NCBI GenBank assembly: GCA_963809695.1
Contig: CAWEKI010000001.1
Location: 21,018 to 85,017 of the forward strand
Direction of reading: 5' to 3'
Length of the DNA: 64,000 nucleotides
Origin: an uncultured Bacteroidota bacterium
GTDB taxonomy: Bacteria > Bacteroidota > Ignavibacteria > UBA10030 > UBA6906
The notes beneath the pieces are model-generated. The model was not told the DNA's origin, ran no database searches, and saw only the letters and a list, made by a program, of their open reading frames with translations. Below are positions 22,962 to 62,807 of this stretch, piece by piece; positions within the stretch are counted from its first letter, which is position 1; every line of letters starts with the position of its first letter. A program made the position numbers and the translations under genes.

Positions 22962-23056
22962 GGTGGCTATCTCCTTCTCGTTAGACTGCCCATATAGATA
23001 TACAACGGACGAGGCGTTTTTTCGAACAGGAATGAAGAAAAAGTCGTCGTCGTCTT

Positions 23057-28514: not shown

Positions 28515-30575
28515 ATGGACGTGACTCAACCAGGCGAATCAAAAGGCTCTCTCCCAGTCGTAAGTGATGACTTGTCGGCACGCAAGAAGGATCTGACCGG
28601 AGAAGACGAAAGGTCGACTGGATTGGAGGGGAGCCTGGAGGCGCGGCTGGAGTTTGAGATGTTGCTCACCGATCTTTCTGCCCGCTTTGTGAATATCCCC
28701 TCTGAGCGTATCGACAGTGAGATTGAGGATGCCGAGCGTCGCATTTGCGAATTCCTTGCCATTGATGTTGCGACGCTTTGGCAGTGGGAGGAAGTTGCGT
28801 CGGGTGCCTTCGCGTTGACCCACCTCTTCAACGCCAATGGAGATCAGGCCCCGCCAGAACGCAGGATTGATGCGATATATCCCTGGGCCCGGCAACAAAT
28901 GCTGCTCGGCCGCGTGGTTGCTTTTTCGTCTCCAAACGATCTGCCGCCCGAGGCAGCCCGCGACCGCGAATCCCTCCAACGTTTCGGCATCAAGTCAGGT
29001 TTGATACTTCCTCTCTCGGTAGGGGGTGGAGCGACCATCGGGATCTTCGGTCTTGAAACAGTGCGAGCGGAGCGTGACTGGCCGGACGATTTGAAAAAGC
29101 GGTTGCAGTTAGTTGCACAGGTCTTTGCTAATGCCCTGGCGCGAAAGCGCGCAGATCAGGCGTTGATTGACAGTGGCGAGCAATTGGCTCTGGCTGCCGA
29201 GGCAGGGGAAGTCGGCATCTGGGTGCGAGATTATACTCACAACCGAATCTTGGGATCGGAAAAATGGCATCGACTGTTCGGGTTTCCCCCTGGTTCCGAG
29301 GTGAGTCTCGACGATTTTATGCAGCGGATTCACGCAGATGACCATGAACAGGTGGAGCGGGCGATTCTACGCACTATGAAGGAGCGCGTTGATTATGCAG
29401 CAGAATTCCGCCTGGTTCTACCCGATGGAAGGATGCGTTGGATCATGTCCCGTGGGCGGATTCAGGAGGCCGCAAATGGGAAACCGCCCCGTATGTTGGG
29501 AGCAGCAATTGACATCACCGAACGCAAACTGTTGGAGGGACAGCTCATTGATCACCTCCAAGAGATCGAGGAGCTCAAGCAGCGCGTCGAACAAGAGAAC
29601 ACCTATCTGCAGGAAGAGATCGGGCTTCTGGTTGAACACGCGGATATTGTGGGGAAGAGTGCAGCTATCAAGCAGGTTCTCGTTCGGGCAAGCCAGGTGG
29701 CCGGGACAGATGCGACGGTCCTCCTGATGGGCGAGACCGGTACGGGAAAAGAACTACTCGCGAGGGCGATCCACAAGATGAGCCGCCGGAAAGAACGCAC
29801 CCTGGTGACAGTTAACTGCGCCTCGCTACCAGCCACACTGATCGAAAGCGAACTCTTTGGCCGTGAAAAGGGAGCCTACACGGATGCACTGACGAAAATG
29901 GTTGGGAGGTTCGAGCTTGCAGACGGGTCAACGCTTTTTCTCGATGAGATTGGCGAAGTTCCTCTTGAGGTACAGTCCAAGCTCCTGCGCGTCCTCGAGG
30001 AAGGACAGTTTGAACGATTGGGCTCCACAAAGACACTGCATGCGAACGTCCGCATCATTGCTGCCACAAACCGGGATCTCGGGCGGTTTGTGCAGGAAGG
30101 CAAATTTCGGCAAGACCTTTACTACAGGTTGAATGTTTTCCCCCTTGTCGTCCCACCGCTCCGCGAACGGCCGGAGGATATCCCGCTTCTGGTCTGGACC
30201 TTTGTCAGAGAGTTTGAGATGAAGATTGGCAAGCGGATCGATCGCATTTCCAGCAAGTCCATGGATTCCATGCAACGTTACCCCTGGCCGGGCAATGTCA
30301 GGGAATTGAGGAATATGATCGAACACGGGATGATTGTGAGCACCGGTAACACCCTCACGGTGAACTTGCCTCAAGATGACCTTTCAGGAAAAAACAAAGC
30401 TTCAGACCTTGACAGTATTGAACGAAGTCATATACTCAAGGTTCTGACAGGGTCCGGCTGGCGTATCGGCGGCAAAAGCGGGGCGGCAGAGGTCTTGGGA
30501 CTGCAAAGAACTACACTTCAGTCGCTGATGAAAAGACTCGGAATCAAACGTCCCCTCCCCGGGGGACGGCAATAA
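28515..30575 (+). CDS. sigma54-dependent transcriptional activator (enhancer-binding protein) with N-terminal GAF/PAS sensory domains
   Basis: AAA+ sigma54-interaction domain (GETGTGKE, ESELFGREKGAYT, GAFT-equivalent region). C-terminal Fis-type HTH. ATG 28515 chosen by colinearity with the paralog at 46943. Confidence 0.85.
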   Translation: MDVTQPGESKGSLPVVSDDLSARKKDLTGEDERSTGLEGSLEARLEFEMLLTDLSARFVNIPSERIDSEIEDAERRICEFLAIDVATLWQWEEVASGAFALTHLFNANGDQAPPERRIDAIYPWARQQMLLGRVVAFSSPNDLPPEAARDRESLQRFGIKSGLILPLSVGGGATIGIFGLETVRAERDWPDDLKKRLQLVAQVFANALARKRADQALIDSGEQLALAAEAGEVGIWVRDYTHNRILGSEKWHRLFGFPPGSEVSLDDFMQRIHADDHEQVERAILRTMKERVDYAAEFRLVLPDGRMRWIMSRGRIQEAANGKPPRMLGAAIDITERKLLEGQLIDHLQEIEELKQRVEQENTYLQEEIGLLVEHADIVGKSAAIKQVLVRASQVAGTDATVLLMGETGTGKELLARAIHKMSRRKERTLVTVNCASLPATLIESELFGREKGAYTDALTKMVGRFELADGSTLFLDEIGEVPLEVQSKLLRVLEEGQFERLGSTKTLHANVRIIAATNRDLGRFVQEGKFRQDLYYRLNVFPLVVPPLRERPEDIPLLVWTFVREFEMKIGKRIDRISSKSMDSMQRYPWPGNVRELRNMIEHGMIVSTGNTLTVNLPQDDLSGKNKASDLDSIERSHILKVLTGSGWRIGGKSGAAEVLGLQRTTLQSLMKRLGIKRPLPGGRQ

Positions 30576-30690
30576 GACCACGCTGCCGAAATGTCGGCAC
30601 GAGTCTGAAGTTATTCTCACTCTCCACGTTGCTCCCGCCATAAACACCCCCAAAGAGTGCGTTTTTCGTGCAGATCTCTCAGACCTTCTC

Positions 30691-30705
30691 TGGCATGATT
30701 CTCGC
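30691..30705 (+). promoter_or_regulatory. candidate sigma54 (-24/-12) promoter upstream of ABM gene 1
   Basis: TGGCAT-N5-TCGC with the GG-to-GC spacing of 12 expected for RpoN promoters; 75 bp upstream of the ABM start and downstream of the EBP gene. Confidence 0.4.
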
Positions 30706-30780
30706 CGCTTGGTCTCTAGTGTCGAGAGATAAGAGAAGGCTCTCCTTGGGGGAATTCTTCCTTCCCTTCCAGCAAACGAA

Positions 30781-31170
30781 ATGGTTCAATTGCGGTCAAC
30801 ATACCAGTTGGAAGCCAATCAAATGGTTCACACTACGATCAGGATGGAAATGTCTCCGGGAAAAGCAAGGGATGCATTGGAGGTCCTTCGCCCCCTGGCT
30901 GAACGAACCAGAGTCGAGCCCGGATGCATAAGTTGTAGGGTCTATCAAGACGTCCAGCAAGAACATACGATCATGATGGAGGAACTGTGGAGCACCCAGC
31001 AAGAGCTTCGCCGGCATCTCTGCTCTTCGGATTACCAGAGGATCCTCCTGGTGATCGAGATGGCAAAAGGGCAACCTGAGATTAGGTTCAATACGATTTC
31101 ACACTCAAGCGGTTTTGAAACCATAGCTGAGGCAAGAAATCACGATGTGATCGTGGCACACGGCCACTGA
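30781..31170 (+). CDS. ABM (antibiotic biosynthesis monooxygenase)-domain protein
   Basis: Pattern ...VEPGCISCRVYQDVQQEHTIMMEELWSTQQELRRHL... matches the ABM-domain consensus (EPGCL.Y........F...E.W.S.EA...H). Paralog at 49063. Confidence 0.65.
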   Translation: MVQLRSTYQLEANQMVHTTIRMEMSPGKARDALEVLRPLAERTRVEPGCISCRVYQDVQQEHTIMMEELWSTQQELRRHLCSSDYQRILLVIEMAKGQPEIRFNTISHSSGFETIAEARNHDVIVAHGH

Positions 31171-31222
31171 ATGAGAAACCGAATTCAACACACCGGAATA
31201 TAGATAAAGAGGAGAACACACA

Positions 31223-33643
31223 ATGGCACAAGCAAAGGCTGCAGAGAAGAGCTCCACAGGGCGCGTCAAGGCAGATAAAGCACGGATCGACCGGCTGAAA
31301 GAACAGCTCAGGAGCACGCCTGCCGAGGTCGATTTTGAACGCGTCAGGATTATGGCGGAGGTGTACGATGATGCTGCCGGCTATCAGACGATCATCTGTA
31401 GGGCCAAATTCATGGCAACCCTGCTTGAGAGGAAAAAGTTGTACATCGACGAAAATCTCTTTGTGGGCAGCATGGCAAGCACCGTCAATGGCATCTACAC
31501 CTATCCGGAATGGCAAGTGGATTGGATGATAGAGGAGAATACGATTGATGAGAAGTGTAAAACCCCGGAAGACAAGAAGGCCAACAAATGGGCGCTCGAA
31601 TACTGGGAAAAGCGTGCACTGAAGCCCCGCACGCTCGATATATTCGAAAGAAAATATGGTTTTGATCCGCGCCCTTCCTATGCTTCCGGCAATGTCGTTA
31701 GTTTCTTTGACTGGCCCGGTGGCGGAGGCAACCTGAACTATCCCCGGGTTTACAGGGAAGGGCTTGCCAGCATGATCAAAGAGGTAGAGGAGCGCGAGGC
31801 AGCCCTCGAAATGAGACTGCCGAATGCGGACAAGTTCGCCTTCTATGAAGCCAGTCTAATTGTCATGAGAGCCTTTATTCGCCTGGCTCACCGTTATGCT
31901 GAACTGGCAAGGGAGATGGCGGCTAAGGAAAAGGATGCAACCCGTAAGGCGGAGCTGATAGCAATTGCCGAAACCTGCGAATGGGTTCCTGAGCATCCGG
32001 CCCGCAATCTGCGGGAGGCTATGCAGTGCCATTTCTTCTGTCATATCGTTGCAGAAATAGAGCAGGTCGGTTGCGGCTATTCTGAGGCTTATCTGGGCCA
32101 GAATTTAGAGCCGTTCTATCAGGCTGACAAGGCTGCCGGTCTAATTGGATATGACGAGGCAGTCTATATGTTCGAGAACCTCGTCATCAAGCTGAACGAG
32201 ATCGGCTATTACTATGGCGAGAAGGTCGCCTTGCAGAACTCTGCCGACCTGGGTCAGAGCATCACGCTCGGTGGCTATACCGAAGATGGAGATGATGCCA
32301 CCGCTGAAATGGATTATGTGGTCCTGGATGCATGTAACTACCTTCACTTGCCACAGCCTCCACTGAGTTGCTGCTACACGGAGAGAATGAGCGGTAAATT
32401 CCTGGAGAAGGTCCTCGATGTAATAGGCACGGGTATCGGTATGCCTCAGTTCGTCAATGGCGAAGTGATGGTGAAGCGCGCCTTGAATCTCTTTGCAGAC
32501 TCCAAGAAGGGCCTCACACTCGAAAAAGCCAGACGCACCTGCATTGGCGCCTGCGTAGGTTCATACATTCCCTATGAGACAGGACACCCTGTTGAAGGGC
32601 AGCCCAACCTGGGGAAGGTCATCGAGTTGTTGATGAACAATGGCTTCGATCCCCGCACCAAGCAGCAGATCGGACCCAAGACCGGAGATCCCGAGACCTT
32701 CAAGACTTTCGAAGAACTATACGCTGCATTCCAAAAGCAGATCGATTTCAACGAGGAGGTTCTCCGCCGGGGTGCATGGATCGCCAGCATGTTGTGCGCG
32801 GACTTCCTGCCGACAACCTGGCGCTCGCTTCTTACCGGGGGCTGCATTGAAACCGGCACCGAGGTATGGAATGGCGGAGCCAATTACTACACAACTGCGC
32901 AAATCGTTGTCGGTGGTGTTGACGCCGCCAACTCGCTGATGGCGGTGAAAAAGTTGGTCTATGATGACAAAAAGATCACCATGGCCGAGCTGAAAAAGGC
33001 GCTGACTGCCAATTGGGTAGGATACGAGCATGTACGCAAGATGTGCTATGAAGCTCCCAAACATGGCAACGACATTCCTGAAATGAACAAGCTGACTCGT
33101 AAGGTGTTCAATAGTATCTATGAGGCTTTCCAAAAGGTAGATGGTGGTGGAAACTACATCAGCCAGGACATTAAATCAGCGCCTGATGCCTATACCAAGA
33201 GCATCCACAACCTGATGGGACTGGTGACGGGCGCGCTGCCGAACGGTAAATATGCCGGGGTTGCACTCACCGATGGAAGTCTGTCGGCCATGCCGGGAAC
33301 CGATGTCAATGGGCCTACCGCGTTGATTATGTCTGCAGCGAAGAGTCAGGATGCCATTAAGTATACAGCAACACACATGAACATGAAATTCCCGCCCGAT
33401 CAGCTGAAAACACGCAAGGGCCGGGATAACGTGCTGAATCTTATCAAGACCTATTTTGACAATGATGGCTATCACATTCAGTTTAATGTGCTCGATACCA
33501 ACATCCTGAGAGATGCACAGAAGCACCCTGAAAACTACCGTGACCTTGTGGTTCGGGTAGCTGGTTTCAGCGCTTTCTTCACCAAACTGGCCCCGGGTGT
33601 GCAGGAAGAGGTCATTGCCCGTACCTTGCAGAGTTTCAAATAA
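31223..33643 (+). CDS. glycyl radical enzyme (pyruvate formate-lyase fold), 806 aa, with non-canonical active-site loop
   Basis: C-terminal glycyl-radical motif VRVAGFSAFF. The C-terminal ~350 aa are colinear with E. coli PflB. The catalytic loop aligns as IGACVGSY against PflB IACCVSPM: a single Cys, neither the CC of PFL nor the CxE of the eliminases. Confidence 0.85.
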   Translation: MAQAKAAEKSSTGRVKADKARIDRLKEQLRSTPAEVDFERVRIMAEVYDDAAGYQTIICRAKFMATLLERKKLYIDENLFVGSMASTVNGIYTYPEWQVDWMIEENTIDEKCKTPEDKKANKWALEYWEKRALKPRTLDIFERKYGFDPRPSYASGNVVSFFDWPGGGGNLNYPRVYREGLASMIKEVEEREAALEMRLPNADKFAFYEASLIVMRAFIRLAHRYAELAREMAAKEKDATRKAELIAIAETCEWVPEHPARNLREAMQCHFFCHIVAEIEQVGCGYSEAYLGQNLEPFYQADKAAGLIGYDEAVYMFENLVIKLNEIGYYYGEKVALQNSADLGQSITLGGYTEDGDDATAEMDYVVLDACNYLHLPQPPLSCCYTERMSGKFLEKVLDVIGTGIGMPQFVNGEVMVKRALNLFADSKKGLTLEKARRTCIGACVGSYIPYETGHPVEGQPNLGKVIELLMNNGFDPRTKQQIGPKTGDPETFKTFEELYAAFQKQIDFNEEVLRRGAWIASMLCADFLPTTWRSLLTGGCIETGTEVWNGGANYYTTAQIVVGGVDAANSLMAVKKLVYDDKKITMAELKKALTANWVGYEHVRKMCYEAPKHGNDIPEMNKLTRKVFNSIYEAFQKVDGGGNYISQDIKSAPDAYTKSIHNLMGLVTGALPNGKYAGVALTDGSLSAMPGTDVNGPTALIMSAAKSQDAIKYTATHMNMKFPPDQLKTRKGRDNVLNLIKTYFDNDGYHIQFNVLDTNILRDAQKHPENYRDLVVRVAGFSAFFTKLAPGVQEEVIARTLQSFK

Positions 33644-42089: not shown

Positions 42090-42869
42090 ATGACAATGGA
42101 TAGCAGCACGCACAGGGCATTCCCGTGGCAGGTATACCTCTCAGAACTCATTGGTACAGCAGCCCTCCTTCTGGTGGGGCTGTCGCTGGTGATTGCCATG
42201 TTTGGAAGTGGCAGCCCGATCCCCGGGCTCATGCCGAACGATGCTCTGCGCCGGGCAATCACGGGATTTCTGTTCGGCACAACAGGGGCACTCATCGCGC
42301 TCTCTCCGGTCGGCAAGAGAAGCGGCGCACACATCAACCCGGTGGTCACCCTCGGATTCCGGCTCGCAGGAAAACTCGAATTGAATGTGGCGCTGGGGTA
42401 CATCGCTGCACAGCTTCTCGGCGGGATACTGGGCTGTATCCCACTTCTCCTCTGGGGAACGACCGGCCTCAGTGTTGCCTACGGAGCTACGTTACCCGGA
42501 GTGGGGTACAGTACATTGACCGTTGTGATGGGTGAAGTGGCGACGACCTTTGCGATGGTCTCCCTCCTGGTGCTGTTCCTGGCATTCCGGAAGATCCGCC
42601 GATTCACACCGGCCCTTTTTCCGCCCCTCTATTCGATCATGGTCTGGGCCGAGTCGCCGATATCGGGTACGAGTACCAATCCGGCCAGGAGCCTCGGTCC
42701 TGCTGTGGTCTCAGGACAGTGGGAGGGGTGGTGGATCTACTGGGTAGGACCGGTGCTCGGGGCACTTCTGGCGATGCTTGCGTGCAGTTTTCTTGTCAAG
42801 AAGATTGAGGTGGCAAAGCTTTATCATTTCGACAGTGATCGTGACAGACTATTTCGAAAATCTCAATAA
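42090..42869 (+). CDS. MIP-family channel (aquaporin / aquaglyceroporin)
   Basis: Two half-helix motifs: HINPVVT (NPV variant of the first NPA) and TNPARSLGPA (second NPA). Six TM segments. Confidence 0.8.
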   Translation: MTMDSSTHRAFPWQVYLSELIGTAALLLVGLSLVIAMFGSGSPIPGLMPNDALRRAITGFLFGTTGALIALSPVGKRSGAHINPVVTLGFRLAGKLELNVALGYIAAQLLGGILGCIPLLLWGTTGLSVAYGATLPGVGYSTLTVVMGEVATTFAMVSLLVLFLAFRKIRRFTPALFPPLYSIMVWAESPISGTSTNPARSLGPAVVSGQWEGWWIYWVGPVLGALLAMLACSFLVKKIEVAKLYHFDSDRDRLFRKSQ

Positions 42870-42881
42870 GGAGAATGTCCC

Positions 42882-44567
42882 ATGAAAGTCATCATCGTTG
42901 GTGGAGTAGCCGGGGGTGCGTCGTGTGCGGCGCGTCTGCGCAGACTGGAGGAGAAGGCTGAAATCGTCCTCGTGGAACGCGGACCGTATGTCTCATACGC
43001 GAACTGCGGCCTTCCGTACCATGTCGGGGGTTCGATCGAGCAAGAGGGGAGCCTCCTGGTGGCGACGGAGGAGATGTTCCGGGCAGTGTTCGCGGTTGAT
43101 TGCCGAACGAACTGCGAGGTGGTCGGGATCTCGGCAAAGGCGAAAACAGTGGACCTGAAGAACACCCAAACGGGTACAGTCACGACAGAGAAATATGACA
43201 AGCTTGTGCTTTCCCCCGGTGCGGCGCCGATCCGCCCGCCGCTTCCCGGTATCGACCTTCCGGGCGTGTTCTCTGTGAGAACCGTGCCTGACGCACGTGA
43301 GATCCGCCAGTGGCTTGACCGGGACTCGGACCGTTCCGTAGGGAATCCCTTCACAGGCGTCGACACGGTGTCGAAGCCAAAACATGCGGTAGTGGTCGGA
43401 GGAGGGTTCATTGGTCTGGAGATGGTCGAAAACTTCGTGGACCGCGGGCTTGGTGTCACGCTCTTGGAGAAGCTCGATCAGGTCATGCCGCCGCTCGATC
43501 CCGAAATGGCGCGCCTGGTGGAGCGCTACCTGGTCAGGCACGGCGTTCAGCTTGTGCTCAATGATGGTGTTGCCGGATTCCGTAAGCCGGCTGCCGGGGG
43601 GCTGGAAGTCATGACGGAATCAGGCAAGGCCTTCCCGGCGGACATCGTGATCCTGGCCATCGGTGTGCGTCCGGAAACCGCGCTGGCGAAGATGGCTGGC
43701 ATCGAGATCGGGAAGCGGGGCGGGATTCGGGTCGATGAGCAAATGCGTACGTCCGATCCGGATATCTTTGCCGTCGGCGATGCGGTGGAAGTCAAGGACT
43801 TTGTGACAGGACAGTGGACGCTCATCCCGCTCGCCGGGCCGGCAAATCGCCAAGGGCGGATTGTCGCTGACGTGATCGCCGGCCGCACATCCCGATTCCG
43901 GGGGACGCAGGGAACCTCGATCTGCAAGCTCTTCGATGCGGCGATCGCTCAGACCGGCGTCAGCGAGAAAATGCTGAAGCAGCTGGGTGACGCCGATTAC
44001 GAGAAGATCTATCTCTACCCGAACTCGCACGCGGGGTACTACCCGGGTGCCAAGCTGCTCCCCATGAAGGTCATATTCCGGAAGTCGAACGGTCGGCTCC
44101 TCGGGGCGCAAGTGCTTGGCGAGGATGGGGTCGCCAAACGGATCGATTCCTTTGCCATGGCGATCCAGATGGGGTGCACGATCTACGACCTGGAGGAATC
44201 GGAGTTGAGTTACGCGCCGCCGTTCGGCAGTGCCAAGGACCCGGTGAACTTCGCGGGCATGGTCGCGGCCGATATTCTCCGGGGCGACATGCCGATCACC
44301 CACTGGGAGTCGTTGAATGGCGCTTTCCTGCTTGATGTACGGAATCCGCAGGAAGTGGACGCTGAGGCGGTTCCTGGCGCGGTCAACATCCCGCTGCCTC
44401 AACTCCGCGCCCGCTTGGGTGACCTTCCCCGCGATCGGGAAATCAACATTATTTGTCGATCGGCGGTGCGAGCCTATTTTGCGACGCGGATTCTCCTGCA
44501 AAGTGGGTTCAAGGCAAAGAATATTTCCGGCGGCATGCTGGCACGGTCGCATTGTACCGGGGATTGA
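42882..44567 (+). CDS. CoA-disulfide reductase family flavoprotein with C-terminal rhodanese domain (CoADR-RHD / NADH-dependent persulfide reductase-like), copy 1
   Basis: FAD motif VIIVGGVAGGAS; redox Cys in SYANCGLPYHVGG; NAD(P) motif VVVGGGFIGLE; C-terminal rhodanese with active Cys (ICRSAVRAY). Confidence 0.8.
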   Translation: MKVIIVGGVAGGASCAARLRRLEEKAEIVLVERGPYVSYANCGLPYHVGGSIEQEGSLLVATEEMFRAVFAVDCRTNCEVVGISAKAKTVDLKNTQTGTVTTEKYDKLVLSPGAAPIRPPLPGIDLPGVFSVRTVPDAREIRQWLDRDSDRSVGNPFTGVDTVSKPKHAVVVGGGFIGLEMVENFVDRGLGVTLLEKLDQVMPPLDPEMARLVERYLVRHGVQLVLNDGVAGFRKPAAGGLEVMTESGKAFPADIVILAIGVRPETALAKMAGIEIGKRGGIRVDEQMRTSDPDIFAVGDAVEVKDFVTGQWTLIPLAGPANRQGRIVADVIAGRTSRFRGTQGTSICKLFDAAIAQTGVSEKMLKQLGDADYEKIYLYPNSHAGYYPGAKLLPMKVIFRKSNGRLLGAQVLGEDGVAKRIDSFAMAIQMGCTIYDLEESELSYAPPFGSAKDPVNFAGMVAADILRGDMPITHWESLNGAFLLDVRNPQEVDAEAVPGAVNIPLPQLRARLGDLPRDREINIICRSAVRAYFATRILLQSGFKAKNISGGMLARSHCTGD

Positions 44568-44630: not shown

Positions 44631-45569
44631 GTGATGCCCGAACCCGAGGTCCCGCAGGAAACACCCGACTTCTCACTGGTCCTGGGTGGTCCACTGTTTC
44701 AGCTGTTCCGACGGACACATCTGTCCGGAGCTGGATTGGAGCTGATGAAGCGGCGGATCGTGTTCATCGCTCTTTTCGCGTGGCTGCCGTTGCTGGTGTT
44801 GGCCTTACTGAGTGGGCGCGCTTTGGGTGGCGGAGTCAAAATCCCGTTCTTGTTCGACATCGAGACACATGCTCGATTCCTGATCGCACTGCCGGTATTA
44901 ATTGCAGCGGAAGTGATCGTCCACCGTCATATCCGACCGGTGGTTCAACAGTTCATGGCGCGGCGCATGATCGTCGCGGAGCAAGTTCCGAAATTTCATG
45001 CGGACATCAAGTCGGCAATGCGAGTGCGCAACTCGCCTGTGGTGGAATTGGCATTGCTTGTTTTCGTTTACACGCTAGGACATTGGACTTGGCGGGACGG
45101 GGTTGCAATGGAACAGGCAAGTTGGTATGCAATGCCGGACGGGAAGAGCCTCAATCTCACCTATGCCGGTTACTGGTTGGCCTTCGTCAGCGTACCGCTG
45201 TTTCAGTTTATCCTGTTGCGCTGGTATTTGCGGCTTTTGACCTGGTCCTGGCTCTTGTGGCGTATCTCGAAATTGAGCCTGCGGCTCACCCCTACTCACC
45301 CGGATCGGGCCGGCGGGCTGGGCTTTCTGGGTGATAGTGCCCACGCCTTCGCGCCGATCCTCTTTGCCCAGGGCGCACTTCTTGCAGGGTTGATCGCCAG
45401 CCGGATCTGCTACGACGGTCAGGCCTTGATGACATTCAAGGGAGAGGCCTTAGGGTTCGTGATCGTTTTTGTTCTCTTCATCCTGGGCCCACTCACGGTC
45501 TTTTCCGGCCATCTCGCACGAGCAAAGCGAAAGGGCTTGCGCGAGTACGGAATGCTCGCCAGCCGCTAG
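44631..45569 (+). CDS. hypothetical polytopic membrane protein, apparently frameshifted near 45560 (continues as the 45569-45823 frame)
   Basis: Several hydrophobic helices. The reading frame ends ...EYGMLASR* while the adjacent frame continues ...VQEFDDKWVQGG... with more TM-like sequence. This suggests a frameshift (pseudogene or sequencing error). Confidence 0.4.
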   Translation: MMPEPEVPQETPDFSLVLGGPLFQLFRRTHLSGAGLELMKRRIVFIALFAWLPLLVLALLSGRALGGGVKIPFLFDIETHARFLIALPVLIAAEVIVHRHIRPVVQQFMARRMIVAEQVPKFHADIKSAMRVRNSPVVELALLVFVYTLGHWTWRDGVAMEQASWYAMPDGKSLNLTYAGYWLAFVSVPLFQFILLRWYLRLLTWSWLLWRISKLSLRLTPTHPDRAGGLGFLGDSAHAFAPILFAQGALLAGLIASRICYDGQALMTFKGEALGFVIVFVLFILGPLTVFSGHLARAKRKGLREYGMLASR

Positions 45570-46133
45570 TGCAGGAATTTGATGATAAGTGGGTCCAGGG
45601 GGGTGCATCCGGTACTGAGGAACTCCTGGGGAGCGGCGATATTCAATCACTGGCCGATCTGGGAAACAGTATTGCGACCGTGCGTGGGATGCGCCTCGTG
45701 CCTTTCGGACCAAATGCCGTGATAACGCTGGCAGTAGTGACCGTGGCGCCTCTGCTCCCCCTGACGCTGACAATCTTCTCAGCTGAGGAGTTGCTGCTCA
45801 AGGTGATCCAGATACTATTGTGATCCAGCAAGTAGGGGGAAATATACACCGCCATCAAAGAAGCGGGAGATTTCGTTCAGACGCCCAAATTCTGCCTTAT
45901 CCGGTAGGGGAGGGTGATCGTCCGGACGCATCGTGGACACCTATTACAAATGCTCCAAGCTGAGCCGGAATCTTGTCCACCTGTTATCTGCAGCGATCGG
46001 CAATCTTCTGCCTCGGCAAAAGAAGACAATCATTTGTAGGGCGTCCTCGGAATAAATTCGGGCACTCAGAAAATTCAGACCGCGCATCTCTCACAGCGCG
46101 AGATTTGAACCACTTCATCACACGTCGGTGGAT

Positions 46134-46162
46134 AAAATCATGCGCCCTTATTGCGCCCTTGG
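46134..46162 (+). repeat. 29-bp exact repeat aaaatcatgcgcccttattgcgcccttgg (second copy at 61476-61504)
   Basis: Exact match between two noncoding regions; the motif itself contains a direct repeat gcgccctt x2. Confidence 0.7.
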
Positions 46163-46477
46163 TGCCGCCTTCTTCAGTGTTGATCATCTGCAATCACTTC
46201 AACGTCAAGACTTTTTTTGTTTCCTGCCGTTCCTTGACTGGACCGCGCTGCATGTTGGTGGTGGATGACGATCAGTTCGGTCGTGGATCCATGATGCATT
46301 CCTCTCATTGCGCCGGAACCTTGTCCACCTGTTATATGGCCTCCTCGGCTGACACATGGGGGGTCGGCTCCGGGAGATCACGGCTCGTGGTGCATCCTAG
46401 AAAGGGCCCCGAGCGAGCGAATTCTAGTGAGCGAGCCGAGGGACCTCGGAACCATGAATTTCACATGAGAACGAGTA

Positions 46478-46512
46478 GACTCGCCCCACCAAAACACAAG
46501 GTGGGGCGAGTC
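46478..46512 (+). repeat. hairpin repeat gactcgccccacc-loop-ggtggggcgagtc (homologous copy at 62535-62572, where it is followed by a T-run, terminator-like)
   Basis: Same 10-12 bp stem sequence in both copies, followed in both by ttggtgggg. Confidence 0.6.
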
Positions 46513-46670
46513 TATTTCCTTGGTGGGGAAGATGCGACTCGCTCAGGGCATTGCCCCGACCTTTGCCTCCGGGGAACTGGGCGAGCGGGAGGAGGGGTTG
46601 CGGCCTAAGCCCCTTTCGTTCTTCCGCGGGCCCGCCAAGCATTTGTAGCTACAGGAGCTCCCCGCAACTT

Positions 46671-46811
46671 ATAGACATTCCCCATTTTCCAGGAAAACTC
46701 TGTGGGTTTTCCTGAACACCTGGTGGAAGCAGGTTCCTGGAACCATCCTGGAACCTTCCTGGAACGTTCCTGGAACGATCTTGGAGCCACGTGCAAATGG
46801 GGAATGTCCAT
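46671..46811. mobile_element. MITE-like 141-bp element with ~15-bp terminal inverted repeats and 8-bp target-site duplication
   Basis: TIRs atagacattccccattt / aaatggggaatgtccat. Flanked by the direct repeat cgcaactt (46663-46670 and 46812-46819). Interior carries tandem tcctggaac repeats (46728-46780). Confidence 0.45.
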
Positions 46812-46942
46812 CGCAACTTCTTTTGCATCTCAAATGGATTTTGGATAATTTCCTGTTGACGCAATTTCTCGGGCGCCGAATCAGTCCCGGCAGCACCTCG
46901 GTAGCCCTTGCGATACCGACAACCCCATCATCTGAAGCAAGT

Positions 46943-48922
46943 ATGACAACATTCGCTCGGAGCGAGCCAGAGGAACTTACTTCAAGCCAGCTGAAGTTCG
47001 AGATGGTTCTGGCCGACATCGCTGCCCGATTCCTGAGAATGATCCCGCAGGATGTAAACGAAGAGATCGACCGCGCACTCGGGCAGATTCGCGAGTTTTT
47101 TGAATCCAACATGTGTGGCTTGTTCCGCGTCAACCCTCAGGCCGACGAGCTCATGCTGTCACACGTGGCTGTCACTGAAGCCATACGCATGATTCCGGAT
47201 AAAACGAACTATGCTCCTCGGTCTCCGTGGAGATTTCCCAAGGTGGTCCGGGGAGAAGTCGTTCTGGTGAACAACCTCGATGAGCTTCCGAAGGAAGCAG
47301 ATGTGGACCGGCGCTCAAGTGAGTCGCTGGGGATTCAAGCCTACTTGAGCATACCTGTACCAGTTGGAGGCGTCACGGCCTATCTTCTCCATCTGGCATT
47401 TACGCGGCCGGGACCAGCGTGGCTCGCTACGTATATTCCCAGATTACGCGTGCTTGCGGAAGTTCTGGTCACCGCACTGGAACGTAACAGGGAAATCGCA
47501 GCCCGGGAGGAGACGGAGGCCCGTCTCGAACTCGCGACGGGAATGGCCGGCGCCGGGATGTGGGATCTCGACCTGAGGACCAACGCCTTTTGGGGGACGG
47601 CCCGGGCGAGGGAACTCTACGGGATTGTCGAGGGCGAGAAGGTGAGCCTTGAGACGTTGTACAGCAAGATTCACGCTGATGACATCGAACGACTGAAGCG
47701 GGACCTGGAAGAATCCATGCAGACGGGGGCTTCCCTGGTAACCGAGTACCGAGTTGTACTGCCAGATGGAGGAATTCGATGGGTTGCGGTGCGGGGGGCC
47801 CGTTCTCCAAAACCCGTCCATGGCGGCGAGCACATCCTCGGCGTGTCCGTGGACGTCACGGAGCGGAAGAGCGCGGAAGAAAATACCAGACGTTCGCTTG
47901 AAGAGATCAAACGGCTGAAGGAGATGCTCGAAGTCGAGGCTCGCTTTCTTCGCAAGGAGATAGGCCTTTCGCACTCCCACCTTGACATCGTCGGCAAGAG
48001 CGAAGCAATCAGGATTGTGTTGCACCAGATCGAACAGGTGGCGCCGACTGACTCCACGGTCTTGATCGGGGGGGAGACCGGGACAGGGAAAGAGTTGGTG
48101 GCACGTGCGATTCATTCGCTGGGCAAGAGGAAAGACCGATTAATGGTCAAGGTCGATTGTGCATCCCTTCCGACCACGCTTATCGAAAGCGAGCTCTTTG
48201 GCCGGGAGCGCGGTGCCTACACCGGGGCGATTACCAAACAAGTTGGCCGTTTCCAGATTGCCGATAAGGGGACTGTCTTCCTGGATGAGATCGCTGAGCT
48301 GCCGAGAGAGACGCAGTCCAAGCTCCTCCGGGTCCTGCAGGACGGTTGTTTTGAAATTCTCGGCAGTCCCAAAACGGTGCTTGTGGATGTGCGCGTCATT
48401 GCGGCGACAAACCGTGATCTAGCCAAAGAAGTCAAGGAAGGTCGCTTTCGGGAGGATCTCTACTACCGGCTCAACGTTTTTCCCATCCAGGTTCCTCCGC
48501 TCAGGGAGCGAAAAGAGGACATTCCGATGCTGGTATGGCATTTTGTAGAATTCTTTGCAAAGGAAATGCGCAAGGACATCCGGCGCATCCCCAGGGAGAC
48601 TATGGATGCCCTGGTGAACTACCCCTGGCCGGGGAACGTCCGGGAGATGAAAAACCTCATCGAACAAGGATTCATTATCAGTTCGGATGATCGGTTAACC
48701 GTTCGATTGCCCCAATCCCCAATTGCCGCCTCACGTTCTCCTCAGACGCTCGAGGCGATCGAACGACAGCACATTCTGGATATCCTGAATCAGCAACAGT
48801 GGCGCATCAAGGGGGCAGGAGGGGCCGCCGCGCTACTCGGCATGAATCCTTCCAGCCTCTACTCGAAGATGAAACGCCTCGGTATTCCCACCAAACACAA
48901 AAAAGACGATAGTACAACCTAG
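46943..48922 (+). CDS. sigma54-dependent transcriptional activator with GAF/PAS domains (paralog of 28515-30575)
   Basis: GETGTGKE, ESELFGRERGAYT, C-terminal HTH. Colinear with the first EBP. ATG 46943 preferred over ORF-track start 46781. Confidence 0.85.
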   Translation: MTTFARSEPEELTSSQLKFEMVLADIAARFLRMIPQDVNEEIDRALGQIREFFESNMCGLFRVNPQADELMLSHVAVTEAIRMIPDKTNYAPRSPWRFPKVVRGEVVLVNNLDELPKEADVDRRSSESLGIQAYLSIPVPVGGVTAYLLHLAFTRPGPAWLATYIPRLRVLAEVLVTALERNREIAAREETEARLELATGMAGAGMWDLDLRTNAFWGTARARELYGIVEGEKVSLETLYSKIHADDIERLKRDLEESMQTGASLVTEYRVVLPDGGIRWVAVRGARSPKPVHGGEHILGVSVDVTERKSAEENTRRSLEEIKRLKEMLEVEARFLRKEIGLSHSHLDIVGKSEAIRIVLHQIEQVAPTDSTVLIGGETGTGKELVARAIHSLGKRKDRLMVKVDCASLPTTLIESELFGRERGAYTGAITKQVGRFQIADKGTVFLDEIAELPRETQSKLLRVLQDGCFEILGSPKTVLVDVRVIAATNRDLAKEVKEGRFREDLYYRLNVFPIQVPPLRERKEDIPMLVWHFVEFFAKEMRKDIRRIPRETMDALVNYPWPGNVREMKNLIEQGFIISSDDRLTVRLPQSPIAASRSPQTLEAIERQHILDILNQQQWRIKGAGGAAALLGMNPSSLYSKMKRLGIPTKHKKDDSTT

Positions 48923-49034
48923 GGACGGTATTAAACCCTTTCCCGGGCACGATCCAATTCTCAATTGTTCCAGCAATCGCCCCAACCTGTTGCTCCGCTG
49001 CAGATTCTCGATAACTCCTCCCATATCTGCAATG

Positions 49035-49049
49035 TGGCACGCGCAATGC
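49035..49049 (+). promoter_or_regulatory. candidate sigma54 promoter upstream of ABM gene 2
   Basis: TGGCAC-gcgca-aTGCg; GG/GC spacing 12; ~14 nt upstream of the ABM start codon (nearly leaderless). Confidence 0.45.
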
Positions 49050-49062
49050 GTACTTCTCAGGC

Positions 49063-49410
49063 ATGTTCCTCACCATCGTACGCATTTTTCCTCCTACTGC
49101 TGAACTAGAGGCGATCCGGGCTTACCTGTCGGGTTTCCTGGGACCAACCGGCGTTCAACCAGGTTGCCTGGGTTGCACGTTGGCTGAGGAGTCTGACCCG
49201 GAGGCGCTCGTCTATACGGAAACGTGGCAGACGGAGGAAGAATTCTTGTGTCGACTGCAATCAGGGAAATTCGCGAAGATACTTGAGATTTCCGAGATGT
49301 CCGTTGGGAGACCCGATGTCTGGATTTGCGAAGTCATCAATCAACAAGGGTTGGAGTTTGTCGATAAACTCAGAAAGGATCGCCCGGAGGAGACGCAATC
49401 AACGACATGA
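49063..49410 (+). CDS. ABM-domain protein (paralog of 30781-31170)
   Basis: ...VQPGCLGCTLAEESDPEALVYTETWQTEEEFLCRLQSGKF... matches the ABM consensus. Confidence 0.6.
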   Translation: MFLTIVRIFPPTAELEAIRAYLSGFLGPTGVQPGCLGCTLAEESDPEALVYTETWQTEEEFLCRLQSGKFAKILEISEMSVGRPDVWICEVINQQGLEFVDKLRKDRPEETQSTT

Positions 49411-50141
49411 GAGAGAAGACAATATTGACGATGTCACTGGCGGCGGGAATGTTGCTGCATGCCATGCCGGTGATTGCTCAGGAACAATCAAACGCTTGGA
49501 GGTTCCGGGTGACCCCTTACTTTGTGGGTGCGGCCATGAACGGCGACCTCACCATCCATGGCCGTACTGCGACGGTGGATGTCGGCTTTGACAAGATCCT
49601 GGAGAACCTCAAGTTTGCGGCTATGCTGCAACTTCAGGCACAGAAAGGCCGATGGAGCATCGGGTTGGATGGGATTTATATGGGGCTTGGTGCCACGGCA
49701 AGTAAGCCAGAGGCAGATGTCACCATGGATCAGTGGATGGTAGAGCTTTCGGGAGCCTATCAACTTGCACCCGGGATCGAGATGCTGGCTGGGGTGCGCT
49801 ACAATGCCTTGTCCAGCTCGATCACGTTTGAAAATCCCCGCCTCGCTGAGAAAAGTGGGAATGTGGATTGGTTCGATCCGGTAGTGGGCACGCGCCTGAC
49901 GGCTCGCCTGAGCACTCAGTGGACGCTGCGTGGCCGGGCAGATATCGGCGGATTTAATGTCGGGTCGTACATGACGTGGCAGGCTGCGGCCTATGTCGAT
50001 TTTCGGGCCAGTGATCTCATTGCTATCGTCGGGGGCTATCGTGCGTTGAGCAATAACTTTGAGACCGGCAGTGGAGACGAACTGTTTCGATATGACGTGA
50101 CCGTGTCCGGTCCAACGCTGGGAGTGTCGTTTGCCTTTTAA
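49407..50141 (+). CDS. outer-membrane beta-barrel protein
   Basis: Signal peptide; amphipathic strands; C-terminal ...LGVSFAF (terminal Phe). Confidence 0.5.
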   Translation: MREKTILTMSLAAGMLLHAMPVIAQEQSNAWRFRVTPYFVGAAMNGDLTIHGRTATVDVGFDKILENLKFAAMLQLQAQKGRWSIGLDGIYMGLGATASKPEADVTMDQWMVELSGAYQLAPGIEMLAGVRYNALSSSITFENPRLAEKSGNVDWFDPVVGTRLTARLSTQWTLRGRADIGGFNVGSYMTWQAAAYVDFRASDLIAIVGGYRALSNNFETGSGDELFRYDVTVSGPTLGVSFAF

Positions 50142-50717: not shown

Positions 50718-50792
50718 GACGGCCGCTGCACTGCTCATGCTTCCTGTGGCTTTGCTGTTGAAATGCATCGATCGTTTTGAGGAGACAATACC

Positions 50793-52478
50793 ATGAAAGT
50801 CATTATAGTTGGTGGAGTGGCAGGCGGAGCCTCCTGTGCGGCGCGTCTGCGCAGATTGGATGAGAAGGCTGAAATCGTGCTCGTGGAACGCGGACCGTAT
50901 GTCTCATACGCGAATTGCGGCCTTCCGTACCATGTCGGGGGTTCGATAGAACAGGAATCCAGCCTCCTGGTGGCGACGGAACAGATGTTCCGTGCAGTAT
51001 TCGCGATCGATTGCAGGACAAGCTGCGAAGTAATCGGCATTTCAGCCAAAGAGAAAACAGTCAAGCTCAAGAATCACGCAAATGGTGAAGTGACCACTGA
51101 GAAATATGACAAACTGGTGCTTTCCCCCGGGGCGGCGCCGATCCGTCCGCCGCTTCCGGGGATTGATCTCCCGGGAATATTTTCTGTAAGAACAGTACCT
51201 GATGCGAGACATATGCGCGAATGGTTAGACCGTGATATATTAAATACCGGAATGAATGAATACAGCGGCGTTAACACAATTGCAAAACCCCTCAATGCAG
51301 TTGTCGTTGGAGGTGGATTCATAGGTCTGGAGATGGTTGAAAACTTAGTGCATCGCGGACTTAATGTAATATTGGTTGAAAAGTTAGATCAGGTTATGCC
51401 GCCGCTCGATCCTGAAATGGCTCTTGTAGTAAAACGTTATATGGAAAGACACGGCGTTAAAGTTGAACTTAATGATGGCGTTGCAGGATTTCGTAAATCT
51501 GATGATGGAATGATTGAAGTACGTACGGAATCAGGAAAAGTTTACCCTGCAGAAATTGTTATCCTTGCAATCGGTGTTAAGCCCGAAACAGAATTAGCGA
51601 AGATGGCAGGAATCGAACTCGGTAAAAGAGGAGGATTTAAAGTTGATGATCAGATGCGGACTTCAAACGCAGATATCTTTGCTGTTGGTGATGCAGTTGA
51701 AGTAAAAGATTTCGTTACCGGAGAAATGACTCTTATTCCCCTTGCAGGACCGGCAAACCGGCAAGGAAGAATTGTCGCTGATGTTCTTTGCGGTCGTAAT
51801 TCGCGCTATCGTGGTACACAGGGGACCTCAATCTGCAAAATATTTGATGCGGCAATTTCACAAACAGGTGTGAGTGAAAAAACACTTACAAGACTTGGTG
51901 TGACCGACTATGAAAAGATTTACACATATCCGAACTCGCACGCGGGATATTATCCCGGCGCAAAAATACTTGTTATAAAAACTCTGTTCCGCAAATCCGA
52001 CGGGAAAGTGCTTGGTGCCCAGGTGCTTGGTGAAGAGGGTGTTCCCAAAAGAATTGACTCTTTTGCAATGGCCATTCAGATGGGCTGCACTATTTACGAT
52101 CTGGAAGAATCAGAACTCTGTTACGCCCCGCCATTTGGTAGTGCCAAAGACCCGGTTAACTTTGCAGGCATGGTTGCAGGAGATATTCTGCGGGACGATA
52201 TGCCGATCATCCACTGGGATACGCTTGGTAACGGGTTCATTTTAGATGTGCGTAATCCGCAAGAACTTGAAGTAGAGTCTGTTCCCGGCGCTGTGAATAT
52301 CCCTTTGCCGCAACTTCGGTCCCGTCTGGGAGAACTTCCTCGTGATCGAGAAATCCATGTCCTTTGCCGTTCAGCTCAGCGAGCCTATTATGCCACTCGC
52401 ATACTTCTGCAAAATGGATTCACAGCAAAGAATATTTCCGGCGGAATGCTTGCGCGTTCACATCGTGCGGTGAGTTAG
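50793..52478 (+). CDS. CoADR-RHD flavoprotein, copy 2 (mosaic: high-GC 5' ~390 bp nearly identical to copy 1, remainder low-GC)
   Basis: Same motifs as copy 1. First ~390 nt are near-identical to 42882-43270 at nucleotide level. From ~51180 codon usage shifts to A/T-rich (tta, aaa, gat). Confidence 0.8.
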   Translation: MKVIIVGGVAGGASCAARLRRLDEKAEIVLVERGPYVSYANCGLPYHVGGSIEQESSLLVATEQMFRAVFAIDCRTSCEVIGISAKEKTVKLKNHANGEVTTEKYDKLVLSPGAAPIRPPLPGIDLPGIFSVRTVPDARHMREWLDRDILNTGMNEYSGVNTIAKPLNAVVVGGGFIGLEMVENLVHRGLNVILVEKLDQVMPPLDPEMALVVKRYMERHGVKVELNDGVAGFRKSDDGMIEVRTESGKVYPAEIVILAIGVKPETELAKMAGIELGKRGGFKVDDQMRTSNADIFAVGDAVEVKDFVTGEMTLIPLAGPANRQGRIVADVLCGRNSRYRGTQGTSICKIFDAAISQTGVSEKTLTRLGVTDYEKIYTYPNSHAGYYPGAKILVIKTLFRKSDGKVLGAQVLGEEGVPKRIDSFAMAIQMGCTIYDLEESELCYAPPFGSAKDPVNFAGMVAGDILRDDMPIIHWDTLGNGFILDVRNPQELEVESVPGAVNIPLPQLRSRLGELPRDREIHVLCRSAQRAYYATRILLQNGFTAKNISGGMLARSHRAVS

Positions 52479-58947: not shown

Positions 58948-59263
58948 GTCGCCGCCCCGGGGGTCCGGATGGCCTAGCTTGGACTGGAAATCCATTGAAC
59001 CTTGGAAACACAAAGAGAACAGGGGAGCAGCTGGAGAAAAGGATTCCTGCGTGGCTTTCTCCGCCGCTATTTCCCCATCCCGACATGGGGCGCTGAAAAC
59101 TAAGGCAGGACGTTCACGGTGCCCTATCGTTTACAGGAAATGATAGTTGATGGGGCATTAGATTCTCGAACACTCCACGATGCGCGAGGTCGGGGATTGT
59201 GGGCTCCGGATTCGCACACAACAACTCACAGACCAATTCCTGATCGGGAAGCTCGGAACGTTT

Positions 59264-60217
59264 ATGACCAGACTCTTCGAAGTGACCCGGACCGGTCTTG
59301 TTGAGCAGCGCCCGACCGGCCGCACGGGCTTCCATTTGCCCCGCAAGTCAGTCTCCTGGTTCCTCATTCGTCGCGCCGGCCCATCATGGGACATCATGCA
59401 GGAGGGGCTGCCGTTCGACGACGCCACGCTTGCATGGATCGCGGCCCCCGACCAGCGGCCGACATTTCGCGTAAAGGGGAATCTCGCGCTCGTGGATTTC
59501 GCACTATACAATGGAGCCAACGATGAGCACCCGGATTACGTGAGAATAGCAATCGGAAGGAACCTCCTCATCACTATCGGCTCAGCCGAGTCAAACATGC
59601 TCGATTCGATGGCCGAGGCGCTCGGGCAGATCACATCCCCCGTCCAGCCAGTCGTTGAGGACATCCTCTACAACCTTATCAATGCTATGATCGCCGCTCA
59701 TGCGGAGGCTGCAGCGAACGTGAGGCGGCTCGTGAATGACATTGCCCTGAAGGTGGACAGCGACATTTCCTCCGTGGAAGTCAGAGAAATCCTGAAGGCC
59801 AAGACGCGGCTCGACCGTCTCTCGTATGTTCTGGAGGAACAGTCCATCAGCATCGGATTCTCGCCCCACATACGGTGGCGAGGAAGATCGGACCGAGTAC
59901 GCATCGAGTTTGCGAACCTCCGGACCTCATTGCGATCGTTAGAGACCTCCATGGACAACACCAGGAGCCGCCTGGATACTATCCATCACCAGTACGAACT
60001 CGTACTCCAGGAAGCGTCCAATAAGCGGCTGAACGTGCTGACGATCGTGCAAACGATTTTCGTGCCGCTGACGTTCCTCGCCGGGATCTATGGGATGAAC
60101 TTCAGCTACATGCCCGGGCTGGAATGGCGGTACGGATACTTTGCCGCGCTGGGCGTCATGTTGTTGATCACAGCCTTCTCCCTCCGTTACTTCGCCCGCC
60201 GTGGGTGGTTCAAGTAG
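59264..60217 (+). CDS. corA: CorA-family divalent cation (Mg2+/Co2+) transporter
   Basis: C-terminal two-TM region with the signature LAGIYGMNF (GMN motif). ATG 59264 preferred over ORF-track start 59180. Confidence 0.8.
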   Translation: MTRLFEVTRTGLVEQRPTGRTGFHLPRKSVSWFLIRRAGPSWDIMQEGLPFDDATLAWIAAPDQRPTFRVKGNLALVDFALYNGANDEHPDYVRIAIGRNLLITIGSAESNMLDSMAEALGQITSPVQPVVEDILYNLINAMIAAHAEAAANVRRLVNDIALKVDSDISSVEVREILKAKTRLDRLSYVLEEQSISIGFSPHIRWRGRSDRVRIEFANLRTSLRSLETSMDNTRSRLDTIHHQYELVLQEASNKRLNVLTIVQTIFVPLTFLAGIYGMNFSYMPGLEWRYGYFAALGVMLLITAFSLRYFARRGWFK

Positions 60218-61067: not shown

Positions 61068-61469
61068 ATGAGTGACCGCACGGGCACATGTCTTGCCATT
61101 GATGCATCAGGAACAGTCTACATGGGAAATTACAATGGCCTTTTTAGAACGCTCGAAACGACCTTCACTGAAATCCCCGTTTCTTCTACTGAGGTGCGGG
61201 CCGCCTCGTTCCAGCATTGCCCCAACTACTCCAATTATCCTTTCAACCTTACGACAATTATTCACTACGACCTGACGTATAGGTCATACGTGACCCTTGC
61301 GGGCTTCAATACGGTCGGGCAGCAGATGGTCACACTGGTCAACGGCGAGGGCGAGGAGGAGTACCATGAGGTCACATTCATTGCAGAAGGCCTAGCATCA
61401 GGGGTCTACTTCTACCGGATTCAGGCCAGTGGCTATACCCAGACGCGTAGGCTCTGCCCAATTCGGTAG
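61068..61469 (+). pseudogene. orphan 3' fragment encoding a T9SS C-terminal sorting domain (CTD)
   Basis: C-terminal ~80 aa match the T9SS CTD pattern (NYPNPFN.TT.I.Y.L......V.L..YN..G..V.TLVN......G.H.V.F.A..LASGVYFYR.QA..F..T.K). Only ~50 aa of cargo precede it, and the upstream frame is open but has no start. Confidence 0.55.
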
Positions 61470-61683
61470 GTTGAAAAAATCATGCGCCCTTATTGCGCCC
61501 TTGGCTGTGCAATACATGTAAGAGATGGAAGAGATGAACGTGGCGATCTGGCGAATACGGCCTAGATTTCGCTGATCGCCACATCCGTCTTTGGTCCCGG
61601 TCTCCGCCCGAGGGCGTAGACCGAGGATCCTCGTCCCGACATCGAAGTTAGCATCGGCCTCAGCCTCGCTAACTTCGGTCGGG

Positions 61684-61709
61684 ACGGGATTCAAGTCCCG
61701 CCTTCCGCA
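61684..61709 (+). other. fossil tRNA-Leu 3' fragment (T-arm + acceptor 3' strand), part of module copy A2
   Basis: cgggattcaagtcccgccttccgca matches the last ~23 nt of tRNA-Leu(27421-27503). Followed at 61734-61764 by a copy of the same terminator hairpin (aacccctt-gtcaatc-aaggggtt-atttgttt). Preceded by an 18-bp bulged hairpin (61635-61683). Confidence 0.55.
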
Positions 61710-62807
61710 CAAAACCTCTTCTCTAACCCCTTGTCAATCAAGGGGTTATTTGTTTGGCCCCCAGAAGTCCGGACTCTCTGTGCGCCCTTGATCCCGCCCT
61801 CCAAATCGTTACATCACGCAACCGCTTCTCCCTCGAGGTGATATTCCTATTGGCTGATCCTTCGTTCGGAATTTGCTGCATGGGCTATAGAAGGGAGACT
61901 CCTGAAGACTGAATCATCATCTGCAAGTGATTCCCATTGTTCCTGAACCATGTCCATCTGATAAACGGAATCCTTCGATGACATCCTCATCTGCCCGTGG
62001 AATCGGTCGCTTGTAGGGCATCGTCGGAAGAAATTCCGACTCCACGTGGCGACAGAAGAGCCGCCCGGCTCACGATGAACTGAGAGCACGAGCGGTCTTT
62101 GTGTTTCGACATCAATCGCTGCGTCCGTATCGGTACCTTGACGTGGGAAAGAGATGCATCAGATACAAGAGATGGAAGCTGCCATTTGGCGAAAGCCGGG
62201 AAATTCCGCTCCATGCGCAAATGATCTTTGGTTCGAGTCCTGCTCGCGGAGCGAGAATCCCCTTGGTAACACAAGGGGATTTTCATTTCTATTTCGGGGT
62301 GTACCCTTATCTGTACCCCTGACGTATCGACCTGTACCCTTCATTCGATTGATACAAACTGAAACGTACCAAATCCATTTAAAAAAGGCCAGATAAGGGT
62401 TCACCGACCGTTTCGCCGTCCCGATCCGAAGGATCGGGACGAGCCTCGTCCCTCCACCGAAGGTGGAGGGACGGGAGTCCGGCCTGCCCGCCGAAACTGA
62501 TTCACAAGTGCAGGCGGGCTCGCGGACCTGCTCGACTCGCCCCACCAAAGCCAATGGTGGGGCGATTTTTTTGGTGGGGCTCACTCGCGGCTCCTTCGGA
62601 ACCCCGCCACAATCCGATGTTGAGTACATCCTTCGCTATCATGTCATTATTACACTGATGGGTAAAAATGCCACCAGGGTATTGTTCACGGGGCATATTT
62701 CAGCCCTGTTGGTCCAAATCCGCATCTGGCATGAATCATGCGCTGTTCACAATGCCGAATAGGACAATAGTGCGGAAGGACATCTGAGAACAAAAGGACT
62801 CCGGGCA

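Follow-up and report, generated by a model that had tools for sequence, protein, structure and literature searches.

A probable 141-bp MITE-like element with terminal inverted repeats and an 8-bp flanking duplication upstream of a sigma-54 activator gene

A 141-bp intergenic segment (positions 46671-46811) of the window, which is the whole stretch of 64,000 nucleotides that was analyzed, is probably a MITE-like element, i.e., a non-autonomous element derived from an insertion sequence (IS) of the cut-and-paste (DDE) type. The segment is bounded by two terminal inverted repeats (TIRs) of 17 nt each, complementary at 16 of 17 positions and separated by 107 nt, and these are abutted on both sides by identical copies of CGCAACTT. 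This direct repeat is exactly 8 bp long; the bases just outside it differ and give no ninth match. The initial annotation had placed TIRs, a flanking 8-bp direct repeat, internal tandem repeats, and an internal palindrome in a segment of this length, and each was recovered here, the repeat units as a five-unit array of period 11 detected by Tandem Repeats Finder and the palindrome as a subterminal hairpin (Table 1).

The array (5.0 copies, 86% matches, score 68) is built from the unit TCCTGGAACNN, with four of five units containing an exact TCCTGGAAC and the fifth a degenerate TCTTGGAGC. Each 11-bp unit is near-palindromic (GTTCC-T-GGAAC), and six CCWGG sites are present in the element as compared to 0.5 expected. 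The GC content of the element is 50.4%, versus 55.8% for the window. Folded as single-stranded DNA, the element reaches -40.2 kcal/mol, as compared to -18.3 +/- 3 kcal/mol for shuffled sequences (z = -7.3).

Table 1 Coordinates of the MITE-like element, its neighbors, and the soil-metagenome loci compared with it. Positions are those of the window unless a metagenome locus is named. TIR, terminal inverted repeat; TSD, target-site duplication.
Feature	Coordinates	Strand	Description
TSD, left copy	46663-46670		CGCAACTT; exact match to 46812-46819; abuts left TIR
Left TIR	46671-46687	+	ATAGACATTCCCCATTT; 17 nt; pairs with right TIR in predicted fold
Inverse of tandem unit	46687-46695		TTCCAGGAA; at inner edge of left TIR; overlaps subterminal hairpin
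Subterminal hairpin	46690-46714	+	CAGGAAAACT-CTGTG-GGTTTTCCTG; 10-bp stem in minimum-free-energy structure
Tandem array, five 11-bp units	46733-46789	+	GTTCCTGGAAC-like; 46735-46789 by Tandem Repeats Finder
Right TIR	46795-46811	-	AAATGGGGAATGTCCAT; reverse complement ATGGACATTCCCCATTT
TSD, right copy	46812-46819		CGCAACTT; abuts right TIR
Predicted sigma-70-type promoter	46822-46849	+	TTTGCA, 16 nt, GATAAT; consensus scan, 9/12 matches
Sigma-54 enhancer-binding protein gene	46943-48922	+	659 aa; PAS_3, Sigma54_activat, AAA_lid_14, HTH_8 (Pfam)
Soil-metagenome palindromic family	L137 1461-1568; L138 6593-6699; L139 910-1015		~150-180 bp

Bacterial MITEs are recognized by TIRs, a flanking duplication, small size, lack of coding capacity, and a stem-loop (PMC3184786), and typically span ~50-400 bp without a transposase gene (PMC3184786, PMC4596501); further hallmarks are multiple copies at different sites of a genome, an autonomous IS with matching TIRs that supplies the transposase in trans, and empty sites in related genomes. 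The segment falls within this size range, Pfam has no match for any ORF that crosses it, and the TIRs, the abutting duplication, and a stable fold are present as described above. The proposal in the initial annotation that the segment arose by transposition is thereby borne out in part, namely in its structure: TIRs, an exact abutting target-site duplication (TSD), a non-coding size, a location between genes, and a stable stem-loop. At only 141 bp, the element is too short to encode a transposase, and it would be mobilized in trans by a transposase encoded elsewhere that recognizes both 17-bp TIRs. Cuts staggered by 8 bp at the target CGCAACTT would allow the element ends to be joined to the cut target, and gap repair on both sides would then produce the flanking 8-bp direct repeat. 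The pre-insertion (empty) site would read GAGCTCCCCGCAACTTCTTTTGC, with a single CGCAACTT. With an unaltered duplication and TIRs that match at 16 of 17 positions, the insertion appears evolutionarily recent; we infer both this age and the DDE type of the transposase. Duplications of 8 bp are made by several IS families, including IS256, ISL3, IS66, and IS1595, and the termini of the element (5'-AT(A/G)GAC) do not discriminate among them, so that the parent is assigned to none. The 11-bp array would most simply be a minisatellite trapped or expanded inside the element; alternatively, it may consist of subterminal transposase-binding repeats. Subterminal ends with multiple sites bind transposase in Tn7, Mu, and plant hAT/CACTA elements.

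Among described systems, the closest analog in form is MITEAba12 of Acinetobacter, which is 113 bp long, has 16-bp TIRs with one mismatch and a duplication of 9 bp, and occurs once in the parental genome (PMC6382973). With MITEAba12 and the reviewed MITEs (Correia/NEMIS, RUP, Nezha; PMC3184786), the present element shares its small size, short imperfect TIRs, duplication, non-coding and intergenic character, and stem-loop. However, ISAba12 has been proposed as the parent of MITEAba12, whereas no parent IS with matching ends and no second copy were found here, and at 50% GC the element is not AT-rich, in contrast to MITEs in general. Since MITEAba12 is itself single-copy in its parental genome, low copy number does not disqualify the MITE reading. 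BrickBuilt, a MITE of Porphyromonas gingivalis, carries 1 to ~23 copies of a 23-nt unit per element, is present as 19 elements in one genome, and in some copies contains promoters firing in both directions (PMC4596501). It resembles the present element as a small intergenic element with inverted-repeat ends and an interior head-to-tail array without spacers, but here the unit is 11 nt long and repeated five times, one element is known, and no internal promoter-like site is predicted. The feature type is an ordinary one: elements of this class, including some that combine TIRs and target duplications with an internal minisatellite, have been amply described (PMC3184786, PMC4596501, PMC6382973), and the present one opens no new question. 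If confirmed as a family, it would add one more MITE for a poorly sampled lineage, for which named homologs of a neighboring gene tentatively point to Acidobacteriota, and would record a recent transposition next to the 5' side of a sigma-54 activator gene, a possible strain marker or candidate cause of altered regulation.

The 64-kb window contains one copy of the element, and a second occurrence of the TIR was not found in it with up to three mismatches allowed. Scanning species-representative genomes with the 17-mer gave at least 120 matches, all of them single and judged to be due to chance among the matches listed, and BLAST of the whole element against the matched genome loci gave, among those listed, TIR-only matches of 17-23 nt. 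Neither an inverted partner within 8 kb nor an IS-like partner was present beside any of the 134 chance TIR matches listed. Viral contigs, scanned separately for the TIR alone, for paired TIRs, and for the tandem array, yielded chance matches only, and blastn against plasmids and phages returned no match. Likewise, the full element was not found in JGI metagenomes when paired 13-mer cores 77-137 bp apart were sought; the four loci detected (L136-L139) have interiors unrelated to the element and lack duplications. The right TIR begins with ATG, and a reading frame is open across the element, with a 47-aa translation; a word-indexed protein search with this read-through returned no candidates, and an exhaustive protein search returned repeat-protein noise only. 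Longer homologs of the downstream activator (e.g., P0009, 716 aa) have N-terminal extensions that do not resemble this read-through. In the literature, the TIR and array sequences match unrelated PCR primers only, and no sequence similarity of the element to any described element was detected. Rfam yielded no credible family for the element or its surroundings, and none of the ~45 window ORFs scanned with Pfam encodes a DDE transposase or site-specific recombinase.

Three of the four metagenome loci form a palindromic family from soil (Table 1), to which L136 is unrelated. They resemble the element in a 13-14-nt core, GACATTCCCCATTT, that occurs in inverted pairs 106-108 bp apart, and in L137 the contiguous match to the right end of the element extends to 17 nt (GACATTCCCCATTTGCA). 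However, the inverted repeats of these loci are 29-40 nt long and reach 10-25 nt further outward, which places the shared core away from the termini; the ends of the loci are self-palindromic (AAATGGGGACATTCCCCATTT); and the interior forms a hairpin, GCAAAAGGGGACG...CGTCCCCTTTTGC, with no TCCTGGAAC repeats and no visible target duplication. The scan itself demanded the shared core, and by our rough estimate a 13-mer is expected ~10,000 times by chance in the collection. Coincidental sharing of the core is plausible because 13-mers are this frequent and inverted-repeat arms are common. All four loci were rejected as relatives of the element on account of their different interiors and lack of duplications.

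The element ends 131 bp before the ATG (46943) of the sigma-54 activator gene, a start codon backed by an identical 659-aa protein (P0001) and by homologs of the same length. The window contains a first sigma-54 activator gene at 28179-30575, and the neighbor of the element is the second, as the initial annotation had it; the expected activator domains were found in its product (Table 1). The predicted sigma-70-type promoter between element and gene consists of host DNA outside the element, with its -35 box beginning 2 bp past the right TSD, and TTTGCA-16-GATAAT is the sole sigma-70-like match in 46000-47200 in a consensus scan. The same kind of scan detected no sigma-70-like site inside 46671-46811 on either strand. 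No match to a sigma-54 promoter was found inside or beside the element, the window-wide scan being near chance level, and by eye the GG-N10-GC spacing is unsatisfied both before and after insertion. The insertion may have shifted older upstream sequence 149 bp further from the predicted promoter.

That an inverted repeat and a direct repeat coincide here by chance is next to impossible. A single 17-mer TIR is admittedly not rare, with 14 single matches in viral contigs and at least 120 in genomes. The combination was assessed by scanning for exact 12-mer-seeded inverted repeats 30-600 bp apart and then for outer direct repeats, with 2 bp slack, in the window and in 200 second-order Markov shuffles of it. 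The real window holds six such inverted repeats, and only that of the 141-bp element has a flanking direct repeat of at least 4 bp (it is 8 bp), whereas an inverted repeat flanked by direct repeats of at least 8 bp occurred in 0/200 shuffles, and one flanked by at least 6 bp in 1/200. A joint probability calculated by hand, allowing 2 bp slack per boundary, is at most ~5e-4 per window. The structure is genuine and not random. It is unlikely, though a more serious prospect than chance, that the segment is a one-off, internally deleted IS remnant, which transposed, was never amplified as a family, and has been immobile since its parent IS was lost from the genome. Such a remnant is consistent with the single copy in 64 kb, with the lack of any related copy in the metagenome, viral, plasmid, phage, and protein collections searched, and with a window devoid of transposase. 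However, the interior, with its hairpin and 11-bp array, is unlike a transposase gene fragment, in line with the Pfam result for the crossing ORFs, and the intact duplication and little-diverged TIRs point to a recent event and hence to a transposase that was active not long ago. Moreover, of the source genome the searches covered only the window, so that the lack of further copies weighs little.

Three further readings give the inverted repeats, the mobility, or the array a different meaning. An inverton, in which a site-specific recombinase acting on the 17-bp inverted repeats would turn the intervening 107 bp around and so change activator expression, has in its favor that these repeats bracket a short intergenic segment just upstream of a regulatory gene. 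Known invertible promoters have a similar layout; in fimS and Bacteroides-type switches, inverted repeats bracket 100-300 bp upstream of a gene. Inversion, however, would leave the exact 8-bp direct repeat next to the inverted repeats unaccounted for, no promoter-like site was detected within the segment on either strand by consensus scan, and no tyrosine or serine recombinase is encoded among the ~45 window ORFs scanned, which together render this switch very improbable. Even less credence is due to a REP/REPIN-type palindrome moved by a Y1 (RAYT) transposase, the candidate source of which is a degenerate RAYT-like gene 24 kb upstream. Like REPs and REPINs, the element is short, strongly folding, and intergenic; a Y1_Tnp-domain ORF is present in the window (22599-22963, minus strand, E = 5.8e-12), it is flanked by GGTCTGACCCT arrays with the same 11-bp period as the array of the element, and CCTGG is common to both repeat units. 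Yet the units agree at only ~6/11 positions, GGTCTGACC of the RAYT flank is absent from the element, and the RAYT-like ORF stops early (~120 aa) and seems to continue in another frame. Moreover, mobilization of the IS200/IS605 type and of REPs leaves no TSD and does not need TIRs (PMC3184786), whereas the element has both. A regulatory region that evolved in place, with a phased TTCCWGGAA array for a transcription factor or the activator and with coincidental flanking repeats, likewise carries a very low probability. It could account for five near-palindromic units at 11-bp spacing, or about one helical turn, for a sixth, inverted motif at 46687, and for the position upstream of a regulator gene. 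It is opposed by the absence from 200 shuffles of an inverted repeat with an abutting 8-bp direct repeat, by the lack of the motif upstream of the orthologs in L001, L140, and L141 and of the paralogous activator, by the location of the other window TTCCWGGAA sites (35416 and 56299) inside coding ORFs, and by the chance occurrence of an 11-bp tandem of the same unit in a giant-virus contig.

That contig, from a giant-virus metagenome (L142, 5226-5285), carries five tandem copies of AACTTTCCTGG in AT-rich intergenic DNA, with the same 9-nt core as the unit of the element, a resemblance judged coincidental. An integron attC site, with RYYYAAC ... GTTRRRY core sites at the ends of an imperfect palindrome beside a gene cassette, was also considered and rejected: the ends of the element read ATAGAC.../...GTCCAT, no 3' GTTRRRY was seen by eye, and no integrase is encoded in the window.

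The MITE-like reading leaves room for a role of the array in regulation. As a mobile regulatory cassette, the element would be a MITE with helically phased TTCCWGGAA sites, five plus one inverted, that bind a host transcription factor or the transposase, and its insertion beside the -35 box would rewire control of the sigma-54 activator; we consider this version doubtful. The suggestion in the initial annotation that the internal repeats are binding sites acting on the activator gene gained no support: TTCCWGGAA outside the element occurs only twice in the window, both times within genes, and no promoter-like site lies inside the element. In a looser version, 11-bp-period arrays containing CCTGG may be a recurrent repeat class of the lineage that also flanks the RAYT-like gene.

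The arrays beside that gene show the following arrangement. A tRNA-Lys gene (22241-22313) is directly followed by an 11-bp tandem array of GGTCTGACCCT at 22318-22381, and a second GGTCTGACCCT array, oriented likewise, occupies 23051-23125. The shortened RAYT-like ORF is situated between the two and is the only mobile-element protein among the ORFs scanned. Each array opens with an inverted unit able to form a GGTCAGACC/GGTCTGACC hairpin.

The element lies within a ~1.1-kb non-coding, rearranged region, with the non-coding DNA upstream of it at 45830-46660. This upstream region is a mosaic of pieces repeated beside tRNA-Leu (27.5-27.8 kb) and at 61.5-62.6 kb; a terminator-like hairpin at 46478-46516 is part of it. 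In relatives, a CorA gene is the immediate upstream neighbor of the activator, with spacers of 95 bp (L001) and 179 bp (P0002 contig) that lack the element, and the downstream order is as in the window: activator, ABM-domain gene, and a 253-aa gene. In the window, CorA lies at 59180-60217 and not beside the activator, and because it is displaced as compared to relatives, the region upstream of the activator is rearranged in this lineage. The position of CorA and the repeated modules suggest a segmental rearrangement with breakpoints near the element. Among these modules, 46124-46162 and 61466-61504 share 39 nt at 92% identity, and 46478-46528 and 62534-62579 share a GC-rich terminator-like hairpin.

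An empty site was sought in relatives. The element is absent from L001, L140, and L141, whose activators have 69-74% protein identity and whose upstream DNA gives no alignment with the window; similarity begins only inside the activator coding region, and neither the TIR nor the repeat unit was found upstream of these orthologs. With L143, which is the closest by its glycyl-radical enzyme (90% aa identity), the window has nothing but the operon of that enzyme in common. A paralogous empty site was not found within the window either: pieces of the upstream mosaic recur at 27.7 kb and 61.5-62.6 kb, none of them extending past 46528.

Several further observations concern the mosaic and its repeated parts. 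A non-coding motif of ~90-100 nt occurs in four copies (27737-27821, 45961-46059, 46309-46398, and 61940-62036), with the core GCCGGAACCTTGTCCACCTGTTATATGGC...CCTCGGC.GACA...TCGGC...GCTCGTAGGGCATCCTCGGAA and a mean column identity of 70%. Upstream of the second activator gene it occurs twice in tandem; of the other two copies, one precedes the first activator gene by ~440 bp and one comes after a tRNA-Leu fragment. The motif has no Rfam match, and its consensus structure is weak (-7.3 kcal/mol predicted). A second copy of the 3'-terminal 28 nt of tRNA-Leu (27421-27504) lies at 61687-61714 (93% identity), and the ~190 nt following the gene are 75% similar to the DNA after this 3' fragment (27481-27694 versus 61687-61899). 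The arrangement looks like the att duplication of a ~34-kb integrated element that would hold both activator genes; an integrase was not found between tRNA-Leu and its fragment copy. At the edge of the non-coding mosaic (44631-45823), a 312-aa ORF without a Pfam match ends at a TAG (45567-45569) and is followed in another frame by an 84-aa ORF (45569-45823), a pair that may represent a frameshifted pseudogene or an assembly error.

Two other inverted repeats in the window lack flanking direct repeats. One, at 2896-3015, has 31-nt arms that are 87% complementary and 58 nt apart, and nearly fills the 145-bp spacer between the genes for dihydroorotate dehydrogenase and a Mur-ligase-family protein; the other is a similar 108-bp inverted repeat at 62298-62405, again without duplication. 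Finally, the gene neighborhood of the activator is itself duplicated (42869-43635 versus 50780-51546; 28179-33643 versus 46943-50141). It comprises two pyridine-nucleotide-disulfide oxidoreductase/rhodanese genes, 70-83% identical at the nucleotide level in the two stretches of 300 nt that were compared, and two modules of an activator plus an ABM monooxygenase, the first followed by a glycyl-radical-enzyme operon; sulfur-related genes are also present. The second ABM gene has, 12 bp ahead of its annotated start, a near-consensus sigma-54 -24 box (TGGCACG; 49035-49050).
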